This document shows positions 1,746 through 57,500 of a DNA stretch of 64,000 nucleotides, in pieces; position 1 is the first letter of the stretch, and each line of letters begins with the position of its first letter. Position numbers and translations under genes: made by a program. The DNA is taken from assembly GCA_964016885.1 (NCBI GenBank), contig OZ024745.1:49786001-49850000 (forward strand). The letters run 5' to 3'. The notes beneath the pieces were generated by a model, which was not told the DNA's origin, made no database searches, and saw only the letters and a program-made list of their open reading frames with translations. The stretch comes from Eledone cirrhosa (taxonomy: Eukaryota).

Positions 1746-2239
1746 CGTCTTTTTTTTTAATGTATCATGGATTACGTTACTGATTACATAAGACAGTGTA
1801 ACATAGACTTCGTTCAATTTCTGTGTATATTGTCAATTACGATTTTATTTGATGTATCATATCTACATGTATATATATTTGTGTATAATATCAATATATA
1901 CACTACACATGCTAGCAAAAAACCACTGCTAGTAATAATAATAATCGATCACTATAGACAATAGTTACGAAAATCGGGCCAAGTACTCCTGGAAGTGAAC
2001 CAAAGCGCCAGCAAGGAATTAAACTCGGCATCTCGGAAGCTGGGCACGTACGTTAACATCAACGTTAAAGAGCCACTGGTCACTTATTCTGTCAACATTA
2101 AGCCTGTAGTTAGAAGTGTAATCAACGGTTTACTTATGAAGTATATATATATGTATATACATGCCTGTCTGTTTGTTTGTCTGTCCATATGTCTGTCTCT
2201 CTGTTTGCCTGTTTGTCTTTCTGTCTGTCAATCTGTCTG

Positions 2240-2557
2240 TCTGTCTGTATGTATGTATGTATGTATGTATGTATGTATGTATGTATGTATGTATGTATGT
2301 ATGTATGTATGTATGTATGTATGCATGTGTATATATATTTGTATATGTGTGTGTGTGTCTGTCTGTATGTATGTATGTATGTATGTATGTATGTATGTAT
2401 GTATGTATGTATGTATGTATGTATGTATGTATGTATGTATGTCTGTATGTATGTATGTATGTATGCATGTGTATATATATTTGTATATGTGTGTGTGTGT
2501 ATGTATGTATGTATGTATGTATGTATGTATGTATGTATGTATGTATGTATGTATGTA
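2240..2557 (+). repeat. (ATGT)n microsatellite array
   Basis: Direct inspection; similar arrays at 3171-3315 and 4083-4200. Confidence 0.95.
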
Positions 2558-2559
2558 GA

Positions 2560-3170
2560 TATGTCAGGTCACCCGTTGGTGCTACTGGTAACATGTATCC
2601 CAGTACAACCTGTCCCATGGTCGGGTCGTTGGCGACTAAACTGGCAACCCCACCAAGTTTTCTTGGTGAGGTGGGTGACTTTGGACATCCTGCAGGACTA
2701 AAAACAAAACCTGTCAAAGGGCAAAGGACCTCTTAAGAGTCAATGGCCATCCAAAATCACCGGGAGAGATGACCCCTTAGCCTTTGTCAAGGCAGAATTC
2801 TAGGAGAAGGAAAACTCTGATATAACACCTGCAACCCTGATGGTATCCAATGATGTTGACTTGTTCTTCTTTTTGGTAAATATCATCTTGGTTAAGAGAG
2901 TGGGACTGGTTTTGTGCAGTGCCTTTGCTCACTATAAAAGCTTCACGGCACAGGCATTACTTTATATCTGGAGATCTCTCTGCACTTGTCGTCACATGGT
3001 ACCATGGGCCCAGCACGATGTGTCAATAATTGTCACAAGTGTAGTGTTTGTACCAGAGTTTTCAAGTCGCTGGCTGGACTAAAAAGTCACACATATTCAG
3101 CGCATCGGTGGGGGTTCTCCTACATGGATATAAAGTAGTGGCCGTACTCGAAAACGAGTTGGCAGCCACC
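2560..3170 (+). mobile_element. Internally deleted (bipartite) RTE-clade non-LTR element: 5' UTR plus extreme 3' end
   Basis: About 3031-3090 translates to CHKCSVCTRVFKSLAGLKSH (C2H2-type finger, matching 3670-3710). 3' stem-loop GGCCGTACTCG-AAAA-CGAG followed by an (ATGT)n tail. Structured 5' region. Clade assignment is from recall of RTE C-termini. Confidence 0.55.
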
Positions 3171-3316
3171 ATGTATGTATGTATGTATGTATGTATGTAT
3201 GTATGTATGTATGTATGTATGTATGTATGTATTTGTATATGTGTGTGTGTGTGTCTGTCTGTCTGTATGTATGTATGTATGTATGTATGTATGTATGTAT
3301 GTATGTATGTATGTAT

Positions 3317-3730
3317 ATGAGGGAAAAGTTGCCTTTGAGGCATCTCGAATCGCACACGAGAAAATAAAGCGGGATGTGAGGAAGGGCATTGCTGTTGCAC
3401 TTCCAGACGGCGAGGGTCCTCCTATGGTGCTGACATGCAGTGTCTGTGCGAGACTCTGCCTAAGCAAAGCTGAACTCGAAAGTCATCTTCGCAGTCATAA
3501 AGTAAGACCAGTGGTTGACTACCAGGCTGCTGTTGGAGATGCTACTCATCATGCTTGCCAAATATGTGGTAGAGAATGTAAATCAGCAGGCATGCAAAAG
3601 TACACGAACTCCAACCACAGCCGACTATTCCCAGTAAATGTTTTGGTTGCCGACTCTGTGCAAGACATTTTAGATCATTGGCTGGGCTAAAAAGCCACAT
3701 TCGATCGCAGCACTGTTAGTTGCTATCGTG
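3317..3730 (+). mobile_element. 5'-truncated RTE-like LINE 3' end with C2H2 zinc fingers
   Basis: CSVCARLCLSKAELESHLRSH, CQICGRECKSAG and FRSLAGLKSHIRSQH. A matching 3' stem-loop tail lies at 4050-4085. Confidence 0.6.
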
Positions 3731-23096: not shown

Positions 23097-23296
23097 NNNN
23101 NNNNNNNNNNNNNNNNNNNNNNNNNNNNNNNNNNNNNNNNNNNNNNNNNNNNNNNNNNNNNNNNNNNNNNNNNNNNNNNNNNNNNNNNNNNNNNNNNNNN
23201 NNNNNNNNNNNNNNNNNNNNNNNNNNNNNNNNNNNNNNNNNNNNNNNNNNNNNNNNNNNNNNNNNNNNNNNNNNNNNNNNNNNNNNNNNNNNNNNN
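23097..23296. other. Assembly gap (200 N)
   Basis: Run of N. Confidence 1.
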
Positions 23297-28196: not shown

Positions 28197-28202
28197 TAAT
28201 AG

Positions 28203-28426
28203 AAACTTCCAGCACTGGAGAAATGTATGGAACAGGGAATGTTTCCGGCGATGTAGAGCAGAATTAGGCCCACATATCAGCATTGCTTGTGAAAATGACA
28301 TCTACAAGATCGGAAACAAACGACCTCCACGTCTCCAACGCATCAAACGCCGGAGTCGCAATATTACAGTAGATACTAATGACATCAGGAAACCCTTCAA
28401 CCGACATCATTTAAGACTCAACACAC
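28203..28426 (+). CDS. Internal coding exon of a dILP7/relaxin-type insulin-like peptide (B chain and start of C peptide)
   Basis: After TAG|, reads (x)[75 protein letters not shown]-x-x-x-W..RC-x11-C..DIY is the ILP7 B-chain pattern. Canonical GTAAGT donor at 28427, phase 1. An alternative acceptor at 28212 is possible. Confidence 0.9.
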
Positions 28427-28656
28427 GTAAGTCATATTTGAACATTCTTTCTTTTTTGATAAAGTACTAACATCCGAAACGTCGATGACATTCCTTTATT
28501 TTCCTTTCATTTAAGCGCTTGACTAATAACTTTCATCGTAATTTATCCTCATGTCTCTTTTTGTTGTTTTTGGCTGTTGTTGATCTTGCACTATACATAC
28601 ATACGCACTCACACGCGCACACACACGCACGCACGCACACAGACATGCATACATAA

Positions 28657-28850
28657 TTGTTTCTACTTTTGGCACAAGGCCAGCAATTACCCAGTGTACT
28701 ACTGGTACTTTATTTTATCGACCCCGTAAGGATGAAAGGCAAAGTTAACCTTGGCGGGAATTGAACTCAGAATGGCAAGAGCCTTAACTATATGCGTCAA
28801 AGCATGGCGTCCGACCTTCTACCGATACTGCCAATCCACTGCCCTTAACA
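28657..28850 (-). mobile_element. SINE with Nin-like core (GCCTTTCATCCTTACGGGGTCGATAAA)
   Basis: Dispersed copies at about 29140-29240, 36915-37070, 38520-38840, 40200-40345, 46812-46955, 47135-47250, 47605-47675, 58752-58871 and 59271-59390. Confidence 0.8.
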
Positions 28851-29570
28851 GACATGCATACATAATGGCTACATCTCAGGTTCGAGAAGATCCACCCCTT
28901 GTCCCTTTCTCATATATGGGTGGCTCGAAAATAACTTTTTAGCCCCCTCAACGGCTTAGATACCTTTGCTGCAGCGAAAAAAGAAAAAGAAAAAAAAGCC
29001 ATGCTTATGCAACACGAGTGAAGGTTGTTTAGATTAAGTGGTGCCCATGCTTGAAGCTTTTTAAGAGAAGAAAGGCCTTACACTGAGTCAATCTCTTGGA
29101 AGAGTCGTTAGAACATAAGATAGAATGTTTATAGCATTCATATTGGCTCTCTGTTCGTTAAGTTCAAATCCTGCCGATGTCAGCTTTGCATTCCATCCTT
29201 TTGAGCTCGATAACTAAAATACCAGTTCAGTAATGAGGTCGATTCTTTTTTAATATCTCCTTTTCCCATTTTCTCTCTCACTCTCTTCATTTTTCGGGAA
29301 TAAATAGGATGTGTTCAGACCTGGAGAGGTATGGCCTCCGTCTGGTTAAAATGACCAACATGGTGCCTCTACGGGAGTTACTGACACAATCACCATCGTC
29401 ACTGAAACACGGGAGAGAGCCCACTAGTCAAGTCGAATCAGAATACCCACATTTCTGCTAATCCGTCATGCATTTTATATTTCCCAGTGGGTTACCGAAA
29501 TTCCCTTATTACAATAAATATTAAGAAAAGCATTGATAAAAAAATGTATTTGCTTCTCTCCTCCTTATAG

Positions 29571-29791
29571 GTCATCGACGCTCGCTCAGGTTTCCATTTT
29601 TACTGCAAGAATCTGAAGCTTTTAGTTATCTCAAACGGAGTCACACAATGATAAAACGGAGTGAAGGACGTGGAATTATGGAAGAATGCTGTTATACGAA
29701 AGGTTGTACATGGGAAGAGTACGCAGAATTTTGTCATTCTCATTCTCGATATCGAAGCTCAGGTGAGAATGGTAACTGTCCGGCTATTTAA
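29571..29791 (+). CDS. Terminal coding exon of the dILP7/relaxin-type peptide (end of C peptide and A chain)
   Basis: Strong acceptor TTGCTTCTCTCCTCCTTATAG|, phase 1 (C+GT = Arg). Reads HRRSLRFPFLLQESEAFSYLKRSHTMIKRSEGRGIMEECCYTKGCTWEEYAEFCHSHSRYRSSGENGNCPAI*. AATAAA at about 29920. Confidence 0.93.
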
Positions 29792-30289: not shown

Positions 30290-33200
30290 CTTACCGCTGT
30301 TCATAGGCGCCGCTAAATCCCATGGCTGGTTTCTCCTCTTCCACGTGCGTCCAACTCATTAACACCCGGGAGCTTCCAAACTCGCGTCTACACCGTTTCT
30401 GGTCATCACTAGAGAGAGACCGATCTGCTGGCCCTTCCGGTCGAGCACCCTTCCGGCCAAGCACCCTTCCGGTCAAGCACGCTTCCGGTCGAGCACTCCC
30501 CAGCTTCCGGCCACCGCACACCACACCATACCCACACTCCCCTCTGATCTCAAGGATCAATTTCCCCCTCGTCCTTCTGCATATGAAAGTCTGCTGTCCA
30601 GGTTGGTGGTTTGCGACTTCTTTGCGATCTCCGCAGTGTTAGGGTGGCACTTTGAGTTTCCTCTTCCTCGGAGTCCGTTGACACAGTGATTCTACGGACA
30701 TCCATGACATGACGTGGTACTCCGTCCACGGACACATTGTTCTGGGAATTTACGGCCGTCACCGTTCCCCTTCCCCATTGAGATGTGCAACGTGCATCTG
30801 GGGGCTTAACCCAGACTTCTTCGCCCACCTGCACGAATGCACTCTCTCTCCCCACTGGCCGTTGTGGTGGCGTGCACGAGTGCCGCCACTCGTATCTGAA
30901 TACTGCTCTGTGTGGCACCGATTCCTCAACCTGTCCCACCCGAGGGGACATGTTGTACCAGAACACTGCCTCCATTAGTGAGATATGGCCCCGCTCCGCC
31001 AATGCCTTGATCATCCGGTGGTGTCGCTCCACAATTCCATTCCCGCTCGGCCTGTGCGCTGCTCTGAAGAAACGGTCCACCTTCCATCCATCGAGCATCT
31101 CCCTCAGCGCCTCCGAGCGGAACGCTGCGCTGTTGTCCATCAGCAGTTCGTCCACAGGTCCCCGCTCCAAGAACACCTCTCTCAACGTCCGCATGATTTC
31201 CTCGGCGGTTCCAGTCTTCATCTCCCTCCATATCACCATCCGTCCTAGTCCACAGTCGACCATCGAGAGGTACGTTCCCTGCCGGTAGTGCGTCACATCC
31301 ACCGCCAATCGCTTCCAGTCGCGATCCACCGGGAGGCTTCCCGTTTCGTGCACACCCGGGGCGGGATCAATGGACTGACATCGGACGCAGCCTCTAACAA
31401 CCCTTTGAACACTGTGTCTGTTAACGTCCGAGTCGATTCTCCTGGCTAGGAACAGGGTCCTATCCACTCCCATGTGGTGCATGTCATGCAACTCTTTCAG
31501 ATCCGACTCGGTCAGCCGACACACGGCAGCTATTTCATCTTCTACCTCCTGCGGCGCTTCCATCCAGGCTTTCTTCACCCTGGTTAAGACGTCCGCCCTA
31601 TTTTTCTCTGAGGGCACGAAAACTACGCTCAGCTTCAGGTCGAACTCGGTAGCCAGCTCTCCTAAAGTTCCCAGGCGGCGCTTTATCAGCATCTCTGCCG
31701 CCCCTCTCGTTCGCACTCTCTTCTCACTGGTGAGCACTGATCTCACCCATCCGAGTACAGTAGCCGAGTCGGTGCGTATCTCGATGGTGCGCAGTCCCCA
31801 CCCCAGGGCGAAGTTCACTCCTCTCAACACTGCGTCCAGTTCGGCCACATTGATGTGGTTGCAGTCGTCCTTCTTCCCAAGCCAGGCTGCATCCTCGACC
31901 TCAACACCTCCTATCTCCAACGTGACACCCAGCGCTATGCTGCTGGCATCGCACCATACGGTCCCGCTCTGCGATTTGGGAACATACCAGCGTCCCCGCA
32001 CTGGGTCGTCGGCCTTCACCCTCCCCACGATCTCCTGCATCATGGCCACCGTCCTCTCTCCCACTCTGTCACTCCAAGTCACCCCTCCCGCTCGTCTCTT
32101 GACATAACTGCATGCCGTCCGGAGCCACCCAGCAATCGGGTAGTGACCCACACACCGAGAAAAGCTCCCGCCTACTCATACTTGGGCCCAGTTCTGGAAC
32201 TTCATTTCCCCTCTGGAATAACAAGACGCCCGTCCTGTCTCGCCGTAGCCTAAGTCCCAACGCGGCTCCTCCCTCCAACGCTTCTGACGGCTTCGCAGCC
32301 AGTCCATACCCTGTAAATGGCTCGTCACCTCCGCCGCCGACACTACAGACTCGTCCACTAGGATGTCGTCATTGTAGGAGTTAGTAGCCCTCTCTTCATC
32401 TTGTCGGCCTTTCCCAGAATGGTCTTGAGGACCGCCGCCATGATCTTCGGTGCGGAGCTCAGCCCGAAACCGAGCCTGGTCAGGCAATATGTCCGGCCCT
32501 TATACCTGACCAGCTGATACTGTCAGAGCTTCTCATCTATATGCAATTGCAAGTATGCCGACTTTAGATCTACGATTGATGAACCCCCCCCCCCCGCGTC
32601 ATGCGTCTCCACTCACGCAGGGTTTCCCCACAGACATCTGTGACCTCGCCACCCGTGTGGCATGACACGTGCTCGTTCAGCTCCCGAAAGTCCAGCACCG
32701 GCCTCACCTTGTTCTTCGTGGGTTGCGCCACCGCCATTAACGGCAATATTCCGCACTTCACCTCCTCTTTCCAGGGAAGCAGTAGGCCCTCCTCAATCCA
32801 TCTCTCTACCTCTCGCTCGAACTTGCTCCTAATGTCTCCCTTCAATGTGTGTTGATAGCAGCCCACTTTGGTCTTCAGTGTTGGTAGTTCTCCCTTCCAG
32901 TACCACTCAACAACCCATCGAACACGGCCTTGAAGTCTTTGTCCTGCACAGTGTAAGCGGGGTATTTCTCCTCGTGGGCCTTCTGGTTCTCCTGTCGCGT
33001 ACTCACAGCGCATACCGATGCAGCGCCGCCAAACGACACACCGACGTTGTTCACTGTGACGCCTCCTAGACGGCCAATTGCGTGCATGCCCATAACCACG
33101 CCGATCCCATCCACCACGTTGTCAACTACGATGGCAGAAAGCCTTATTTTCTTCCCCGTACCGCCATCTCCACCTCGCTGCGACCTCGGCATTCAATTTT

Positions 33201-33776
33201 CCTGCCGTCGACTGCCCTTACGCTGCTCTTCCCTCTCCACCTCTGCGCTACCCCCGCGGTCACCAGTGTCGTCGTACAGCCAGTGTCCACGAGAGCTCGC
33301 TGTGGCTTTCCCCTCACGAAGACAGCGCCTCTACTCGTAAAGGGCAACTACCGGCGCAGTAGTTCCCCTTGGATCGTTTCCCTGGTCGCAGTTATTAGCG
33401 ATGTGGCCTGGTCGCTTACACCGGTAGCATATTATTTCCGGCCTTGACTCTCTACAGTCTCTCGCCTTGTGCGGGCCCTGGCACCTAAAACAGCGACCTC
33501 TAAACGTTCGCGGGCGATCGTGTGCCCTGGTTGCCTCCCTTTCACCATTTCGCTGCCAGCTGTCTTGAGCCTCTGTAGTTGCTATCGCCGCGACACTCTT
33601 CTTGGCATCTTCAGCTATGATACGGGCTTGTTCCACCAGTGAACACATCTCCATTTCTTTGTAACCCGGGATTTGCTGCAGTTTCACTGCAATGTCATCT
33701 GGAAATCCATTTATGAACGCCAACCGCACCGTGCGTTCGCATTCCACCTGATATCCAGCCAACATGGCCAATCGCC

Positions 33777-33778
<2 letters not shown>
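30290..33778 (-). mobile_element. LTR retrotransposon with gag-PR-RT-RH-IN order, 5'-truncated and frameshifted
   Basis: Two CCHC knuckles, ALVDTG protease, RT (DLKSAY, LGFGLSSAP, SYNDD), RNase H (WCDAS, HINVAEL, TDS), integrase HHCC plus DDE. PPT AGAGGGGAG followed by TG at 30536. Distal LTR boundary uncertain. Confidence 0.9.
30433..30512. repeat. 16-bp tandem repeat (CACCCTTCCGGTCGAG, about 5 copies) inside the putative 3' LTR
   Basis: Direct inspection. Confidence 0.85.
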
Positions 33779-33816
<38 letters not shown>

Positions 33817-34769
33817 AGTGTCCACTGAAACAGTGCTAGTCCCGTAGCATTTTTTTCCATGTGAATCAAATATGTAACTTCTCTACTAAAGAATTGAGTA
33901 CATTGGATAACTCAAAAAGTGGGGCAACTCTAAACTCTTTTGAAATTCTCAAGCGAAATTCTCAAGCGCTATTATTTTAATATCAACAAAATATTCTTAA
34001 TTTAATTGTAATTGAATTTATTCTAAATACATTAGAATTAATTATGCCACACTTAAAACAGAACAAGTTTTGATTTGATATAGCAAATATTTGTTACCGA
34101 TTCTTTTTTCTCTTTTGATATAATCAGCTTCCTTTTGATTGTTTGTTGAGGGTAACAGTTTCAAATAACATTTTGTTTTTCCTAGAAATCCGTTTGATCT
34201 CGGGAGGTTATAATAGACGGTGTTTCTTTTGGAAAGAAAGAGCTGCAAGTAACTTGAAATAATGGTTTCAAATTTAGGCATAATGATATCAATGTAGAGG
34301 GCGGATAAATTCAGTTGTATTGAACATAACTGGTGCTTTATTTTATCAACGAAACGTTTTTAGTTTCTGTATATATGCTGTTTCATGTGAAACGTCTAAA
34401 AACAAACCCAAACCAGAAGCGATTATATACAATTAGAATCGTTCTTACTGAATATATTTAACTGAAGATATAGAATTCAATAATTGAAGAAATGTTGATG
34501 GTTGTTAAATTTCAGTATTCCTGTATCAGCCTATATAATGGCTGCGCTTTAATGGCAGCGTGTACACAGAAAAAGAAACCAAAGTACCTTTCGTTGTTTT
34601 TTTTGTTTCAGGTTTTGATTTTCTGTATTGGAATTTTACATTCACTTTACTAGTACTCGCAAATAGTACATAACCTCTACTTCTACTTCTTCATTATACC
34701 TATTTAAAATTTAAAGCCAAGGTGAACTGAACTATCGATAGATACACCGAATCCTCCAAATGAGAATGC

Positions 34770-51531: not shown

Positions 51532-54500
51532 CTAGCAGAAGTACACGGCATTGCCCGGGTTGAAAAATACGTTTTCTAGGATATATTTGAAACTTCTAAT
51601 ATAGCTGTTTCTTGTATGTAACATATATTGTAGTTGCAATATAATTTCATACTTTGTTTCTTTATTCCTTTCATATCTTGTCTGTGTTTGGGATTTCATA
51701 TAACTGATGAAATACAGTTGTAAATATTTTGTTTCTTCTTCTAAAAGTGGCTGAAGTGGTCAAATTCTGTGGTACACTTGCCCTTGAATCTTGAAAGTAG
51801 GCATGAAACCACCTTCACGGATGACATATACACCAAATGGTGACATTTGGAATGCATTGTACTTTTGAATATTTTGAAGAAAGTGCCTTGATTCAGTAGT
51901 TGTACCTACCTATCAGCAGTCCTCTCAAGGATTTTGGTGGGTTAGGTAATAGTTTAAACTTAATCTTTCCATTTAAACAGCACTATTCAATTGACTCACC
52001 ATTTCATTTTTAGCTCCATAATTTGAACCAAACATTGCCGTTTTGAACCAAAAAAAAAACCCTATAAAACCTCACGGTATACAATATTCTTTGTTTCTCC
52101 GTTTGGAGCAAAAGCAAAGAGGTTGCTCCGGCTGCCAACTCGAGAACATCCAACGTAGAATTGTCCATGTGAAAAACATGGCTCCTCCAGGTGAAGTCCT
52201 GCTACAGATAAAGTCTGACCCTGGGACTTGTTGATGGACATAGCAAAGGCAGCACGAAGGGGAAATTGTGTTCTTTTAAAAGAATAGGGTGCATCCACTC
52301 CTGATGTAGTAAGCGTTACTATAGGTATTAAAACATCTCCTTTTCCACATCCCGACATAATCGTAGCATAAATAATGTGCTGTGACATCCTATTGACAAC
52401 AAGGCGTGTACCATTGCAAAGCTTGGGAGGGGTTATATTCCTGAGAAGTATAACTGGACATCCTTCCTTGAGAGACAAAATATGTTGAGGTAGACCGGGA
52501 ATATCCAATGAATTGAGGAATTCAATGGGATAATTGACCGCATCATGTGCATCAACATTGGTATTAATAGACTTAAAAGACTTATCATTTCCAGGAAGAC
52601 TTTCAAGCATTTGGCGATTAATGGCGGAGACAGTGACATTTGTAGGAGCTAATATAACCATCTCACACAGCCATGTACGATTGCGGTAATTATCTGCCAA
52701 GTTGGGAAAAACGGCTGCCTTGAGATCTTCGACAGTGTTAAACAGACAGCATATATTGTCGAGTGCAATGTCTCCATGCACATCTGAAAGTACTTTGCCG
52801 TCGCCAAGAATGAGAAGGTCTTCAGCAAATTTTTCTGACACAGTATCGCCATGCAGTTGAACACGCATGTTAGTGGTCAGACGAAGTGTTGTTACCTGTT
52901 GCCACAATGGAGAAGACTTCAGGCAGGCCCGAACTTGATCCGCTCTGGTGCCCTTTGTAATAACCGGCAAAGTTTGTCGAAAGTCCCCTGAAAGCAAAAG
53001 AGTTACACCCCCCATGGTCTCCTGACGGTCTCTAATGTCTTTCAGTGTTCTATCTAAGGCTTCAATAGTTCCTTTGTGAGCCATGGTGTATTCATCCCAC
53101 ACAATCAATTGGCACCGTCGTAGCAGTTCTGCTCTTGGACTATCCTTGGTGATGTCACAGAGAGGTGTTTCAGCTGATACCAAGTTAACCGGAAGCTTAA
53201 AGGTAGAGTGTGCTGTCCTGCCGCCAGGAAGTAGTGTTGCTGCAATACCGGATGATGCAATGGCTATTGCAATAACTTCATTCTGTCTAACTTTGGCAAG
53301 AAGAAGTTTAGTAACAAAGGTTTTTCCAGTGCCTCCAGGGGCATCAAGAAAGAAGATACCACTCCATCGATGAAATACATAGTCGGTGATAGCGTTGTAT
53401 GCAAATTGCTGATCAGGAAGTAGTTTTGGTTCCATTTCAAACACATATCTAGCTAGAGTGTCGACATCATAAGATGTTTCTTGGATGATGACAGTTGCAA
53501 TTTTATTAGAATCAGTACGGTGGGTTTGTGGCAGACCGTATGCTGGCAAGGCATTCCCACCCATAAGGAAAATCCTGTCCTCTATGTCTATAAGCCCTTT
53601 ATTGTATAAATCATCAATGAAATCTACTTCTATGTCAGGAAGTACTAGTTGAGCCTGGTGTAGGAAGTCCTCAGACAGTTGGTTCCGAAACTTCAACCAT
53701 AATGTGTAGGGATCACAAATGTCACATAAGTGAAGAAGCTTTGCAAAGAGCTCTCGTAGGCTTCCAAGTGAGTGTGATGAAGCGATCTCCGCCAAGGTTG
53801 CATCCCATCGTGTGTCATCTTCAAGCATTCCACGAACTAAACAGGCATCTCTGTATGTAGACCAAACACGATTACCGTAAGTTCTGAGGTCCTTTGACTT
53901 CATGCAGTAGCATTCGAAGATAGAAGCACTCGTGTTGATTTGGAGGAATCGTATACACTCGCCCCAAGCAATTAGTGAATTTGATCCCGGGAACTCCAAT
54001 AACTGGTTGGCCAGTCTTTCTGCGACTCCATGTTTTTTTATTCCATGTGTAGTATGATGACACCTGAGGATACAGCAATGATTTTACGAAGTCATCGTAT
54101 TCGCACAGTTTGAAAAATCCAGTTAAAGTTGTCTCCCTTGGGGGTCTGTGCCAATTCAGCAGCATTTTTGTTGGTATAGTTCATCCGTTGACCGTGTTCT
54201 AGGTGTACATCTAATTTTACAATTGAAGGGTGCCTATTATGTATTGGAAAACCGAAGATTCGCCAAAAGGCCTCGCTACTACTTACGTAGCGCCCTACTT
54301 GGAATTGCGTTACTTCGTCTCTATTGTTTTCGTTGAGTATACCGAACGAAGCAGCGTCAGAACCCTTATTAACATACTTACATATGTATTTGATGCACTT
54401 GACGGAGCTGCAGAATTCAACATTAATGTGTGCGTTGAAAGTACTGAGCAGGAGTGAGCAATAGGGAATGATCCATCGGTTGTCAACCTCGCCATTCTTA

Positions 54501-57500
54501 ATCCTTGCCGTAAAACCTCCCTCGCGTCGCCTACGTCTATATAATGGATAGCCATCATTGCCAGTCTGAGTATCGCGAATAAATTGACGGGGAAATTTTT
54601 TCGTGCATCTTTTATTGCCTGTAACGCATGGTAAATCAGTTCTAAAGCCAGGCCCACATGGACCATGCACCATATGTGCCCTAACTTTCATGTACAAGTC
54701 CTTGTCAGTGGAAGGATCGGGTAATTCTGCAGAGATGATCCTGTCAATATCGTTGGGACTAACCTTTATTGTCAGCCAAATAAGAATATGAGCATGGGGG
54801 AGGTCCCTTTTTTGTCATTCGATTGTGTACATGTCACATTGAACTGGTCCGAAAACCTCACCTATTTTGATAAGATCCATAAGCTTAAGTAACTTAAGAC
54901 GGAATACTCTAGCCGCGAGATCATGTCGGCGTGTGGCGTTCTGACCAAGAAGGAGTTCGCCCTCAATCTCCTTCCAATTGGGCTTACAAGTAAAAGTTAT
55001 AAATAAGTCTGGCCTGCCGTAATGTCGTACAATAGTCATGGCGTCCTGAGTCCTTTCATGCATATATCGAGGGCTTCCCGTGAAGGTAGATGGCAGAATG
55101 CATACTTTTCCAAGACTCTCAGGATCCGCATCATTGTTCATTCCATCACGAAGGTGTATGTAACTGTCACAACGCAACTTTTTTTGATTGAGTTTGATAA
55201 AACACAATCTCTCAGATTCCATTTTTGCACACATGTCAGTTGCATATTGGTTGAAAAGGTCATTAGAGCGATGTCATCTCGGATCATGAATCGGAATGCA
55301 TAGAAATCCTTGCATGAAACTGTTTTGGTAGAATGAACATCTCAATTGGTAGATTTACATTGTGGAATGCCAAAATGGTATCCGTCCTCTCCATATACAA
55401 AAAGCAGCGGGTATTGGAGTGTGTCGTATGATCTGTGTGTTTCACTGATCCGTTGAAGTCCGTGATCGCGATGCTTGATAACAATGTCACGTTTGTTGTG
55501 CTGATCTCCAGTGAGAAGTATTGCAACCTCATTGAAAGAAGGTGAATTATAGCGGCCTGCATGTTCTCCAGATGGCCGCTTGTCAGCATCAATGGCGACT
55601 TATTAATTATCCACAGCAGCTGTTTCTAACGCGTATTTGAAGCTCTGAACGTAGCTGTTATGACTATGAAGCATGTCCTGAAGTTCAAAAAGGAGCTCCA
55701 GTCTAGTGTCAGAAGCAATTGAGTATTTCCTTGTTGCTTGTGGACAGTCAATTGAGTTTTGAGTTTTTCTTTTGGGAAGGCAAATGTATTTCGCCTTGTA
55801 GCTCGTTCAAGACAGCTGGGCATGAAGTAGACCTGAAGAAATTGGGGCTCTTTATTATCTACAGGCTCAAGTGATCCAATAAGATGATAAACCTGACCTT
55901 GAACTTTGAAAGTGGGCATAAATCCACCTTCACACTCATAACTCGATCCAAAGATGTCATTTGGAAGGCACAATTGTAATGTCGAATATCTTGAAGGAAA
56001 CCTCTTGAGAGTGAATGGGTGCCTGTAAGAAGAAGCCTCAATGGCTGTGGTGGATCCCTAGGAGGGTGCAAGTTGACCTTACCATTAGAGCAGCACATTC
56101 CGGCTGGTTCACTCGGCCACCTTTTGGCTTTGCAAAACTGGCAAATTTCAGACATGCCGCCGATTTGAATGAGGGTGTGTAGCATAATTATTAACGGGGA
56201 CATAATTGAAAGCCTTCAATGACCATTGTGATTTCGCAGCCCTCGAAATACCCCGCTTATTGGGTTTATACTGACCCCCCCCCCCCCCCCCCCCCCCCCC
56301 CCAGTCGAATAGTTCGGATAGCTGCTGCCTCCGCTTCTCGCGCAGCTGCAGTAGCTGCCGCGTCTCTGGTCTGACGAAGATCACGTTCAATATCATTTTC
56401 TGCAGCTCACGCAGCTGCCGTAGCGTCTCTGCTCTGACGAAGTTTTCGTTGAACATCATTCGCTGCATCTCGTGCAGCTGCTTTTGCCTTTGCATTTCTT
56501 GCAAGCCGAGTTTGACGTTCCTCGTTATTCACTGCAGCATGTAAGGATGCAGTTGAAGAAGCATTTCTGGTGTAAACACTCGTCATCATTCTCAGTTGCA
56601 TGTGAAGATACAATGGAAGCAGAATTTCTGGCCCGTCGACTCAAGCAATGTTCATCGATAGACAGAGCTGTCGCATTTCACTGAACACCCCACAATTTGA
56701 GGCTGTCTAATGTTCGACGACGCCTCAGTCAGCCTCCTTCTTTTCGTTATCTGAGACCGCGTCAGTCCTAATAAGGGCATCAAGGTGGTGAGCACGATAT
56801 GACAAAGGAATCTGACAAATGTATCTTAAATATAAAACAATGCGAAAAAATAAGTTTTGCGAATAATTCAATTTTGCAAATCAATTCGTCTAATGAGAAA
56901 TGCACCCAAAACCCAAGAAAATGTCATAGATGCATTATTTACAAAGTCATCTTTACATGAACATGCAGTGTAACCAATAATGTTGGCACTGCCGTTCTTT
57001 AATTTTGTTATAATTCAGTGATAACAGTGATTCAAAGGAAATTTAAACTTTTTAGAGAAATCAAAATTGCACATAAAGCATAACATCTATATATTAATAA
57101 AATCGGTTATGGTAATCAGGAGTTACTTGAAGCCGAACATTAAAAACATGGCAGCTTAAAAAATTGCTCCATTTCTTTTTATGTAACTTTTTATCAGATT
57201 TTGAGTGCATTTCTTAACCGATTATAATTTTACTGAAAAAAATGGATGCGAAATAGTTACGGCTACGGTAAAAAATGTCTAAGTGTGAAAATCACTTGCA
57301 TGGATACCGAGCTAAGGCTGATTAAAGAGCCAGTAAGGGTTTTTAGGTCGCTCTGTATGTCGAGCCCCAGTGCACAAAAATGGGGCATGGTGGAAATAAT
57401 CTGACTTCTTATTTGCATTGAAATTACTCAGATTGACTTTAATTTGCTGTTTTAGTTTGAGCAAAACTTTTGTGCTGGCCAAGCGTCAATAGTAATTAAC

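Follow-up and report, generated by a model that had tools for sequence, protein, structure and literature searches.

Two short exons on the plus strand of the Eledone cirrhosa contig OZ024745.1, at positions 28203 to 29791 of the 64,000-nucleotide stretch that was analysed (the window; positions 49,786,001 to 49,850,000 of the contig), encode the B- and A-chain portions of an insulin-like peptide. On the strength of their homology, they represent the second and third coding exons of an insulin-like peptide 7 (ILP7) orthologue. The features of the locus, in window coordinates, are:

28201..28202, plus strand: splice acceptor AG of a phase-2 intron, read from the sequence and preceded by a TA microsatellite
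28203..28426, plus strand: coding exon 2, with the end of the F-domain, the B chain, the first KR site and the start of the C-peptide
28427..29570, plus strand: phase-1 intron of 1,144 bp, GTAAGT..TAG, read from the sequence, with its donor at 28427
29571..29791, plus strand: coding exon 3, with the remainder of the C-peptide, KR sites, the A chain, the C-terminal tail and the stop TAA
29920..29933, plus strand: AATAAA cluster about 130 nt past the stop, a putative polyadenylation signal recognised by sequence only

The exon pair had been proposed, together with its phase-1 intron, in an initial annotation, and it proved to be real: both splice sites are present and the reading frame is preserved across the phase-1 junction. 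Within the intron there is a SINE-like repeat of very high copy number (~28650-28845, by repeat depth), and the 3' end is a pyrimidine-rich tract followed by TAG. The motifs that had been described were likewise all in place, i.e., a B chain of the form C-x11-C followed by ENDIY, an A chain of the form CC-x4-C-x8-C with WEEYAEFC, dibasic sites (KR/KR/RR/KR/KR) and two extra cysteines. The canonical cysteine codons of exon 2 begin at 28252 and 28288 and those of the A chain in exon 3 at 29687, 29690, 29705 and 29732, while the extra codons are at 28240, in exon 2, and at 29777, in the tail encoded by exon 3. What had been overlooked was that the gene has one more coding exon, which the window does not contain.

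Exon 3 is single copy in a search of the whole genome (2,996 Mb in 1,796 contigs). Both window exons were matched, with no letter differences, by contigs of three public runs, all from one sample that is possibly the source of the assembly itself. The intron was evenly covered in these runs and no 28426^29571 joint was present among the rows listed, and the runs therefore behave as DNA.

A Probable First Coding Exon on an Unplaced Contig

A search of the E. cirrhosa genome with the ILP7 of Octopus bimaculoides, XP_014782891.1, gave matches at three places. Two were the window exons, and the third, for residues 1-46, was a segment on the minus strand of C1534, an unplaced contig of 32,824 bp. 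Two features are to be added to those above:

C1534:16788-16658, minus strand: signal-peptide exon (coding exon 1), from protein and DNA searches
23097..23296 of the window, no strand: assembly gap, a run of 200 N within the predicted first coding intron

With its 131 nt, the C1534 exon stops in phase 2 at a GTAATT donor. Joined to base 28203, its end makes a complete Arg codon, and the translation over the junction agrees with the O. bimaculoides protein. By DNA search of the genome, coding exon 1 is present solely on C1534. The acceptor lying 5 nt before its ATG implies a further, putative 5' untranslated exon. Neither a signal-peptide exon nor a second copy of C1534 was found in the 264 kb round the locus, in which the sole N run is the gap at 23097-23296, 4.9 kb upstream of exon 2. 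It is likely that C1534 fills this gap in reverse orientation, a placement that we infer with no bridging read; the contig ends gave no bridge either, being microsatellite or SINE sequence on each side. With C1534 in the gap, the first coding intron would be at least 21.6 kb long. The possibility that C1534 is a haplotig was considered and rejected, since, apart from three repeat matches, nothing long and near-identical to it was found in the 264-kb region. At its start, C1534 carries two tandem copies (85-87% identity) of a repeat that is also found at window positions 2142-3687, next to a frame that weakly matches the C2H2 zinc finger.

The division of the gene between two contigs raises the alternative that the window exons are a 5'-truncated relic and that the C1534 exon comes from another copy, a reading in keeping with the 128 kb upstream on the locus's contig (C5) that are without a signal-peptide exon. 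However, every exon occurs once in the genome, the intron phases are compatible, the model is free of stops and frameshifts, and conservation is higher in the mature chains than in the C-peptide. Furthermore, the gap lies exactly within the expected intron, the O. bimaculoides ILP7 gene itself extends over 67 kb (PMC11863921 supplement), and run X1 contains all three exons at a similar low depth (3.8-4.9, with coding exon 1 at 3.8). At the C1534 exon nothing aligned from runs X2 and X3, an absence of a kind that can be false. A relic is extremely improbable on this evidence, and an intact gene of three coding exons is the reading that we carry forward.

The Precursor and Its Predicted Processing

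The three-exon model is 576 nt long and encodes 191 aa with a single terminal stop, and it is 78.5% identical to XP_014782891.1 over 191 aa. By region, identity was 32/34 in the B chain, 34/41 in the A chain, 50/69 in the C-peptide and 34/44 in the leader. The two octopus genes differ in that the C-peptide of E. cirrhosa is 6 residues longer and its first coding exon sits on an unplaced contig. A hydrophobic stretch at residues ~9-29 in the hydropathy profile supports a signal peptide, and KR sites are found at residues 83, 92, 140 and 147.

The locus is predicted to be an intact octopus-type ILP7 gene, whose 191-residue precursor would be secreted via its signal peptide, the cut probably falling near residue 31. 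A convertase would excise the C-peptide at KR83 and KR147, with further sites available inside the C-peptide, and the product would be a two-chain peptide of the insulin fold, which family knowledge suggests is released from neuroendocrine cells. By homology with six-cysteine ILP7s, its three standard bridges should be C61-C159, C73-C173 and C158-C164. A ninth cysteine, at residue 27 of both octopus precursors, would be lost only if the signal cut follows it. For dilp7 types in general, processing is described as known from sequence alone (PMC8286064).

Assignment to the dilp7-Type Family

The initial annotation had described a dILP7/relaxin-type peptide. The ILP7 half of that description was borne out by the best match, the Atlas cluster and the intron phases; the relaxin half was not, as dilp7 types stand beside the relaxin/dilp8 type as its sister group and are not relaxins proper (PMC11863921), 'relaxin-type' being an older name for ILP7 (PMC7357564). 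The best match was of the ILP7 class, as had been anticipated: exon 3 matched XP_014782891.1 with E 2.7e-36 and 85% identity, the only match among 8 candidates, exon 2 matched residues 43-112 of the same protein with 78% identity, and further homologue searches returned that protein alone. It is annotated as probable insulin-like peptide 7 (LOC106878236), is listed as ILP7 in supplementary file 1 of PMC11863921, and has the same nine precursor cysteines and the same motifs as the E. cirrhosa model; an O. bimaculoides ILP-7 had been named earlier, with its function unknown (PMC9221753). Its top Atlas cluster is 'putative Insulin-like peptide 7' (score 0.92, 202/256 features).

The insulin-family profile that had been suggested as a check gave a mixed answer, in that Pfam Insulin matches exon 3 (E 0.00079), yet its 20.8 bits are below the cut-off of 23. 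A scan for the strict pattern CC-x3/4-C-x8-C gave one match in the window and two unrelated ones in the 200 kb flanks, and a looser cysteine pattern gave three window matches, one of which was inspected, where 30 shuffles averaged 0.17. The cysteine motif alone is weak, and the proof is the homology to O. bimaculoides ILP7. A sequence search of the PDB returned no solved ILP7, its best insulin-family row being the A chain of DILP1 (E 1.1).

The structure of the gene points the same way. In dilp7-type genes a phase-2 intron lying between the exon of the signal peptide and that of the B chain accompanies the shared phase-1 intron, and it is this phase-2 intron that separates them from relaxin/Dilp8-type genes (PMC11863921). 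Both introns are present in E. cirrhosa, the phase-2 join being one inferred across contigs, and the relaxin/Dilp8-type layout, in which the B chain follows the signal peptide directly and there is no phase-2 intron, was not found. The F-domain that is conserved before the B chain of dilp7 types (PMC8286064) is also present, with W-x-x-x-W before the first cysteine like that of the ILP7s in the supplement (compared by eye), as is the strongly conserved A chain of the form CC-x4/5-C-x8-C with the WEE(Y/F)AE motif. These characters (F-domain, B and A motifs, DIY, WEE and introns) are shared by the dilp7 types, including Drosophila Dilp7, 'arthropod relaxin', oyster MILP7 and the ambulacrarian orthologues, and oyster cgMILP7 has been treated as a dilp7 orthologue (PMC8149454). 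The E. cirrhosa gene adds a member to a family already known, and its orthologue in O. bimaculoides is annotated in RefSeq.

Genomic Surroundings and Other Insulin-Family Genes

The locus had been called the only host gene in 64 kb of transposons. A scan of 26 of 79 frames (>=110 aa) agreed with this to the extent that nine of ten Pfam matches were of transposon type, the tenth being a weak C2H2 finger; 16 of the 26 frames had no Pfam match, and reverse transcriptase domains were present in six. Frames of LTR type (RNase H/integrase, gag zinc knuckle) occupy 30553-33882 on the minus strand, starting ~760 bp past the ILP7 stop, and a Helitron-like element, with a PIF1 helicase and a Helitron N-terminal domain spread over several frames, lies at 52065-55273, also on the minus strand.

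A linked insulin cluster of the IGF-gonadulin-dilp7 type was not found, there being no second insulin-like gene within 100 kb on each side. Elsewhere in the genome there are two other Pfam Insulin matches, on contigs C4 and C296. The first, at C4:33982564-33982662 on the minus strand, is a MIP-type insulin A-chain exon (CxCC-x3-C-x8-C), and the second, at C296:39067-39312 on the plus strand, is a 125-residue ATG frame with a signal-like start, a B-like cysteine pair and an A chain of CECC type. The C296 gene is apparently intronless and of MIP type, with an A chain resembling the C4 exon, and it is possibly a retrocopy.

The Extra Cysteine Pair

The initial annotation had raised the possibility of a fourth disulfide, and a test set beforehand was whether the two extra cysteines are conserved in other molluscs. 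They are, in O. bimaculoides and Crassostrea virginica, and in Owenia fusiformis too, so that with E. cirrhosa both are present in all four lophotrochozoan ILP7s seen. Neither is present in the 22 distinct ILP7s from arthropods and ambulacrarians (supplement sequences, compared by eye), namely those of Drosophila, Saccoglossus, two starfish, two crinoids (2 dilp7 rows among 3 rows listed of 6) and 16 further arthropods (among 17 of 22 places viewed, one repeating Drosophila). Mature cysteines number six in the arthropod and ambulacrarian dilp7 types seen, whereas octopus, oyster and Owenia have eight. The extra B-chain cysteine is at the same position in all four proteins, [ED]-C-x-R-x-C, four residues before the first canonical one, and that of the A-chain tail comes 13 residues past the last canonical A-chain cysteine in oyster and Owenia and 14 past it in the octopuses. 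Judged from published sequences, the pair is a trait common to lophotrochozoans and no novelty of this locus.

Such joint occurrence, in 4/4 lophotrochozoans and 0/22 others, makes it probable that the two extra cysteines form a fourth disulfide with one another. Since the six canonical cysteines keep their spacing, the simplest pairing would be C57-C188 plus the three standard bridges, a connectivity arrived at by exclusion and co-occurrence that would tie the F-domain and the start of the B chain to the A-chain tail. The cysteines of secreted peptides are usually in oxidised pairs (PMC7357564). Two of the four sequences are from octopuses, and a single ancestral gain probably accounts for all four, which makes the co-occurrence one event. 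Structure prediction produced nothing usable: AlphaFold2 run without an alignment on XP_014782891.1 had a mean pLDDT of 37 and a pTM of 0.24, and a prediction of the B-chain and A-chain complex scored 0.02.

The extra cysteines might instead not be paired with each other, and serve in intermolecular dimers, in binding to a carrier, or in a reshuffle, e.g., C57-C61 with C159-C188. That an unpaired cysteine can persist in the ILP7 family follows from the odd seventh cysteine kept in decapod ILP7s (PMC7357564), although the prawn EcILP was described with six (PMC9556898), and both octopuses retain the ninth cysteine, that of residue 27. This reading is nevertheless unlikely, given a pair that is jointly present in 4/4 sequences and jointly absent from 22/22, and canonical cysteines that retain the spacing of six-cysteine ILP7s. 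A different product would result if the RR at residues 59-60, located after the extra B-chain cysteine and before the first canonical one, were cut, for the F-domain would then be a third chain attached by the fourth bridge alone. Owenia likewise has RR there, but the oyster has RV, spiders carry RR at this position without any extra cysteine, and convertase cuts are hindered by nearby disulfides (PMC8286064), all of which leaves three chains a very unlikely outcome. The explanation that we prefer as a whole, i.e., an intact ILP7 of two chains with the three usual disulfides and a fourth, has a probability of roughly 0.8.

Eight cysteines and four predicted bridges are also a feature of MIP-type insulins (Lymnaea MIPs, scallop Py-ISNL, Sepiella SjILP, Mulinia mlILP). 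Their pattern is CxCC-x3-C-x8-C in the A chain and C-x(9-14)-C-x11-C in the B chain (PMC5996578), and their fourth bridge uses the cysteine of the A-chain CxCC (PMC5996578, PMC13198591, PMC9221753). E. cirrhosa ILP7 has a different pattern, CC-x4-C-x8-C-x14-C in the A chain and C-x3-C-x11-C in the B chain. The extra cysteines of MIPs are thus at the start of the A chain and 9-14 residues before the first canonical B-chain cysteine, while those of ILP7 are in the A-chain tail and 4 residues before it, and from these different positions the fourth bridge of ILP7 would be a gain separate from that of the MIPs. Echinoderm octinsulins and the four-bridge multinsulins similarly have an extra cysteine pair and a predicted fourth bridge; multinsulins derive from dilp7-like genes, but both groups are gene lineages other than ILP7, and multinsulins are described as having no F-domain (PMC8286064).

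No description of an extra disulfide in lophotrochozoan ILP7s was found in the literature seen, and one may be stated in Cherif-Feildel et al. 2019, on oyster insulins, in the FASTA supplements of PMC11863921 or in Supplementary Table 1 of PMC8149454 ('predicted chain structure'). It is a tentative proposal, with the odds somewhat against it, that lophotrochozoan ILP7s, those of molluscs and annelids, gained once, and independently of MIPs, a fourth disulfide from the receptor-determining F-domain and B-chain start to an extended A-chain tail, whose connectivity is unpublished for this family.

The Candidate Receptor

By analogy with other ILP7s, the peptide may act on an LGR4-type GPCR, an assignment that we favour by a modest degree. 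ILP7 and LGR4 co-occur across genomes (PMC11863921, PMC7357564), with oyster, Owenia and Lineus each having both (PMC11863921 supplement), in the fly a single escape circuit employs both Ilp7 and Lgr4 (10.1101/2020.09.22.307033), and in ambulacrarians dilp7 orthologues are highest in nervous tissue (PMC8286064). In Owenia, Lineus and Crassostrea gigas the two genes share a scaffold or chromosome, at a distance of 0.55 Mb in Owenia and 0.7 Mb in Lineus (PMC11863921).

It is also conceivable that ILP7 signals via the insulin receptor tyrosine kinase, alone or additionally, and that LGR4 has been lost or has diverged in octopuses. There is no O. bimaculoides entry among the 15 'LGR4' rows of the receptor table of PMC11863921, the fly evidence for ligand and receptor is indirect, and in the E. 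cirrhosa genome no LGR4 was recognised among 12 isolated LDLa matches inspected of 150 scored, a loose search, or by one exact pattern, in an assembly that is fragmented. Two of the LDLa matches are on C5, the contig of ILP7, and are unlike LGR4. Four others, at 304.96-321.43 Mb of C4, have identical scores and frame lengths (E 2.1e-6, 42 aa), which suggests a recent multi-copy duplication. Against the insulin receptor there are, besides the looseness of those searches and the fragmentation of the genome, the co-occurrence reported across genomes, including oyster, Owenia and Lineus, and the conservation in E. cirrhosa ILP7 of the F-domain, which has been linked to LGR binding (PMC8286064). 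We regard this route as rather unlikely and an LGR4-type receptor as the better candidate.

Significance

The ILP7 locus of E. cirrhosa reveals no new system, and its likely fourth disulfide is a lineage-wide feature. It does yield the full gene model of a conserved neurohormone, in a cephalopod assembly whose automatic annotation would likely truncate the gene, and it suggests a place for the unplaced 33-kb contig C1534. Given the likely bridge, a synthetic molluscan ILP7, whether for a receptor search or for testing whether it takes part in the growth, reproduction or optic-gland signalling of octopuses, would need eight correctly paired cysteines.
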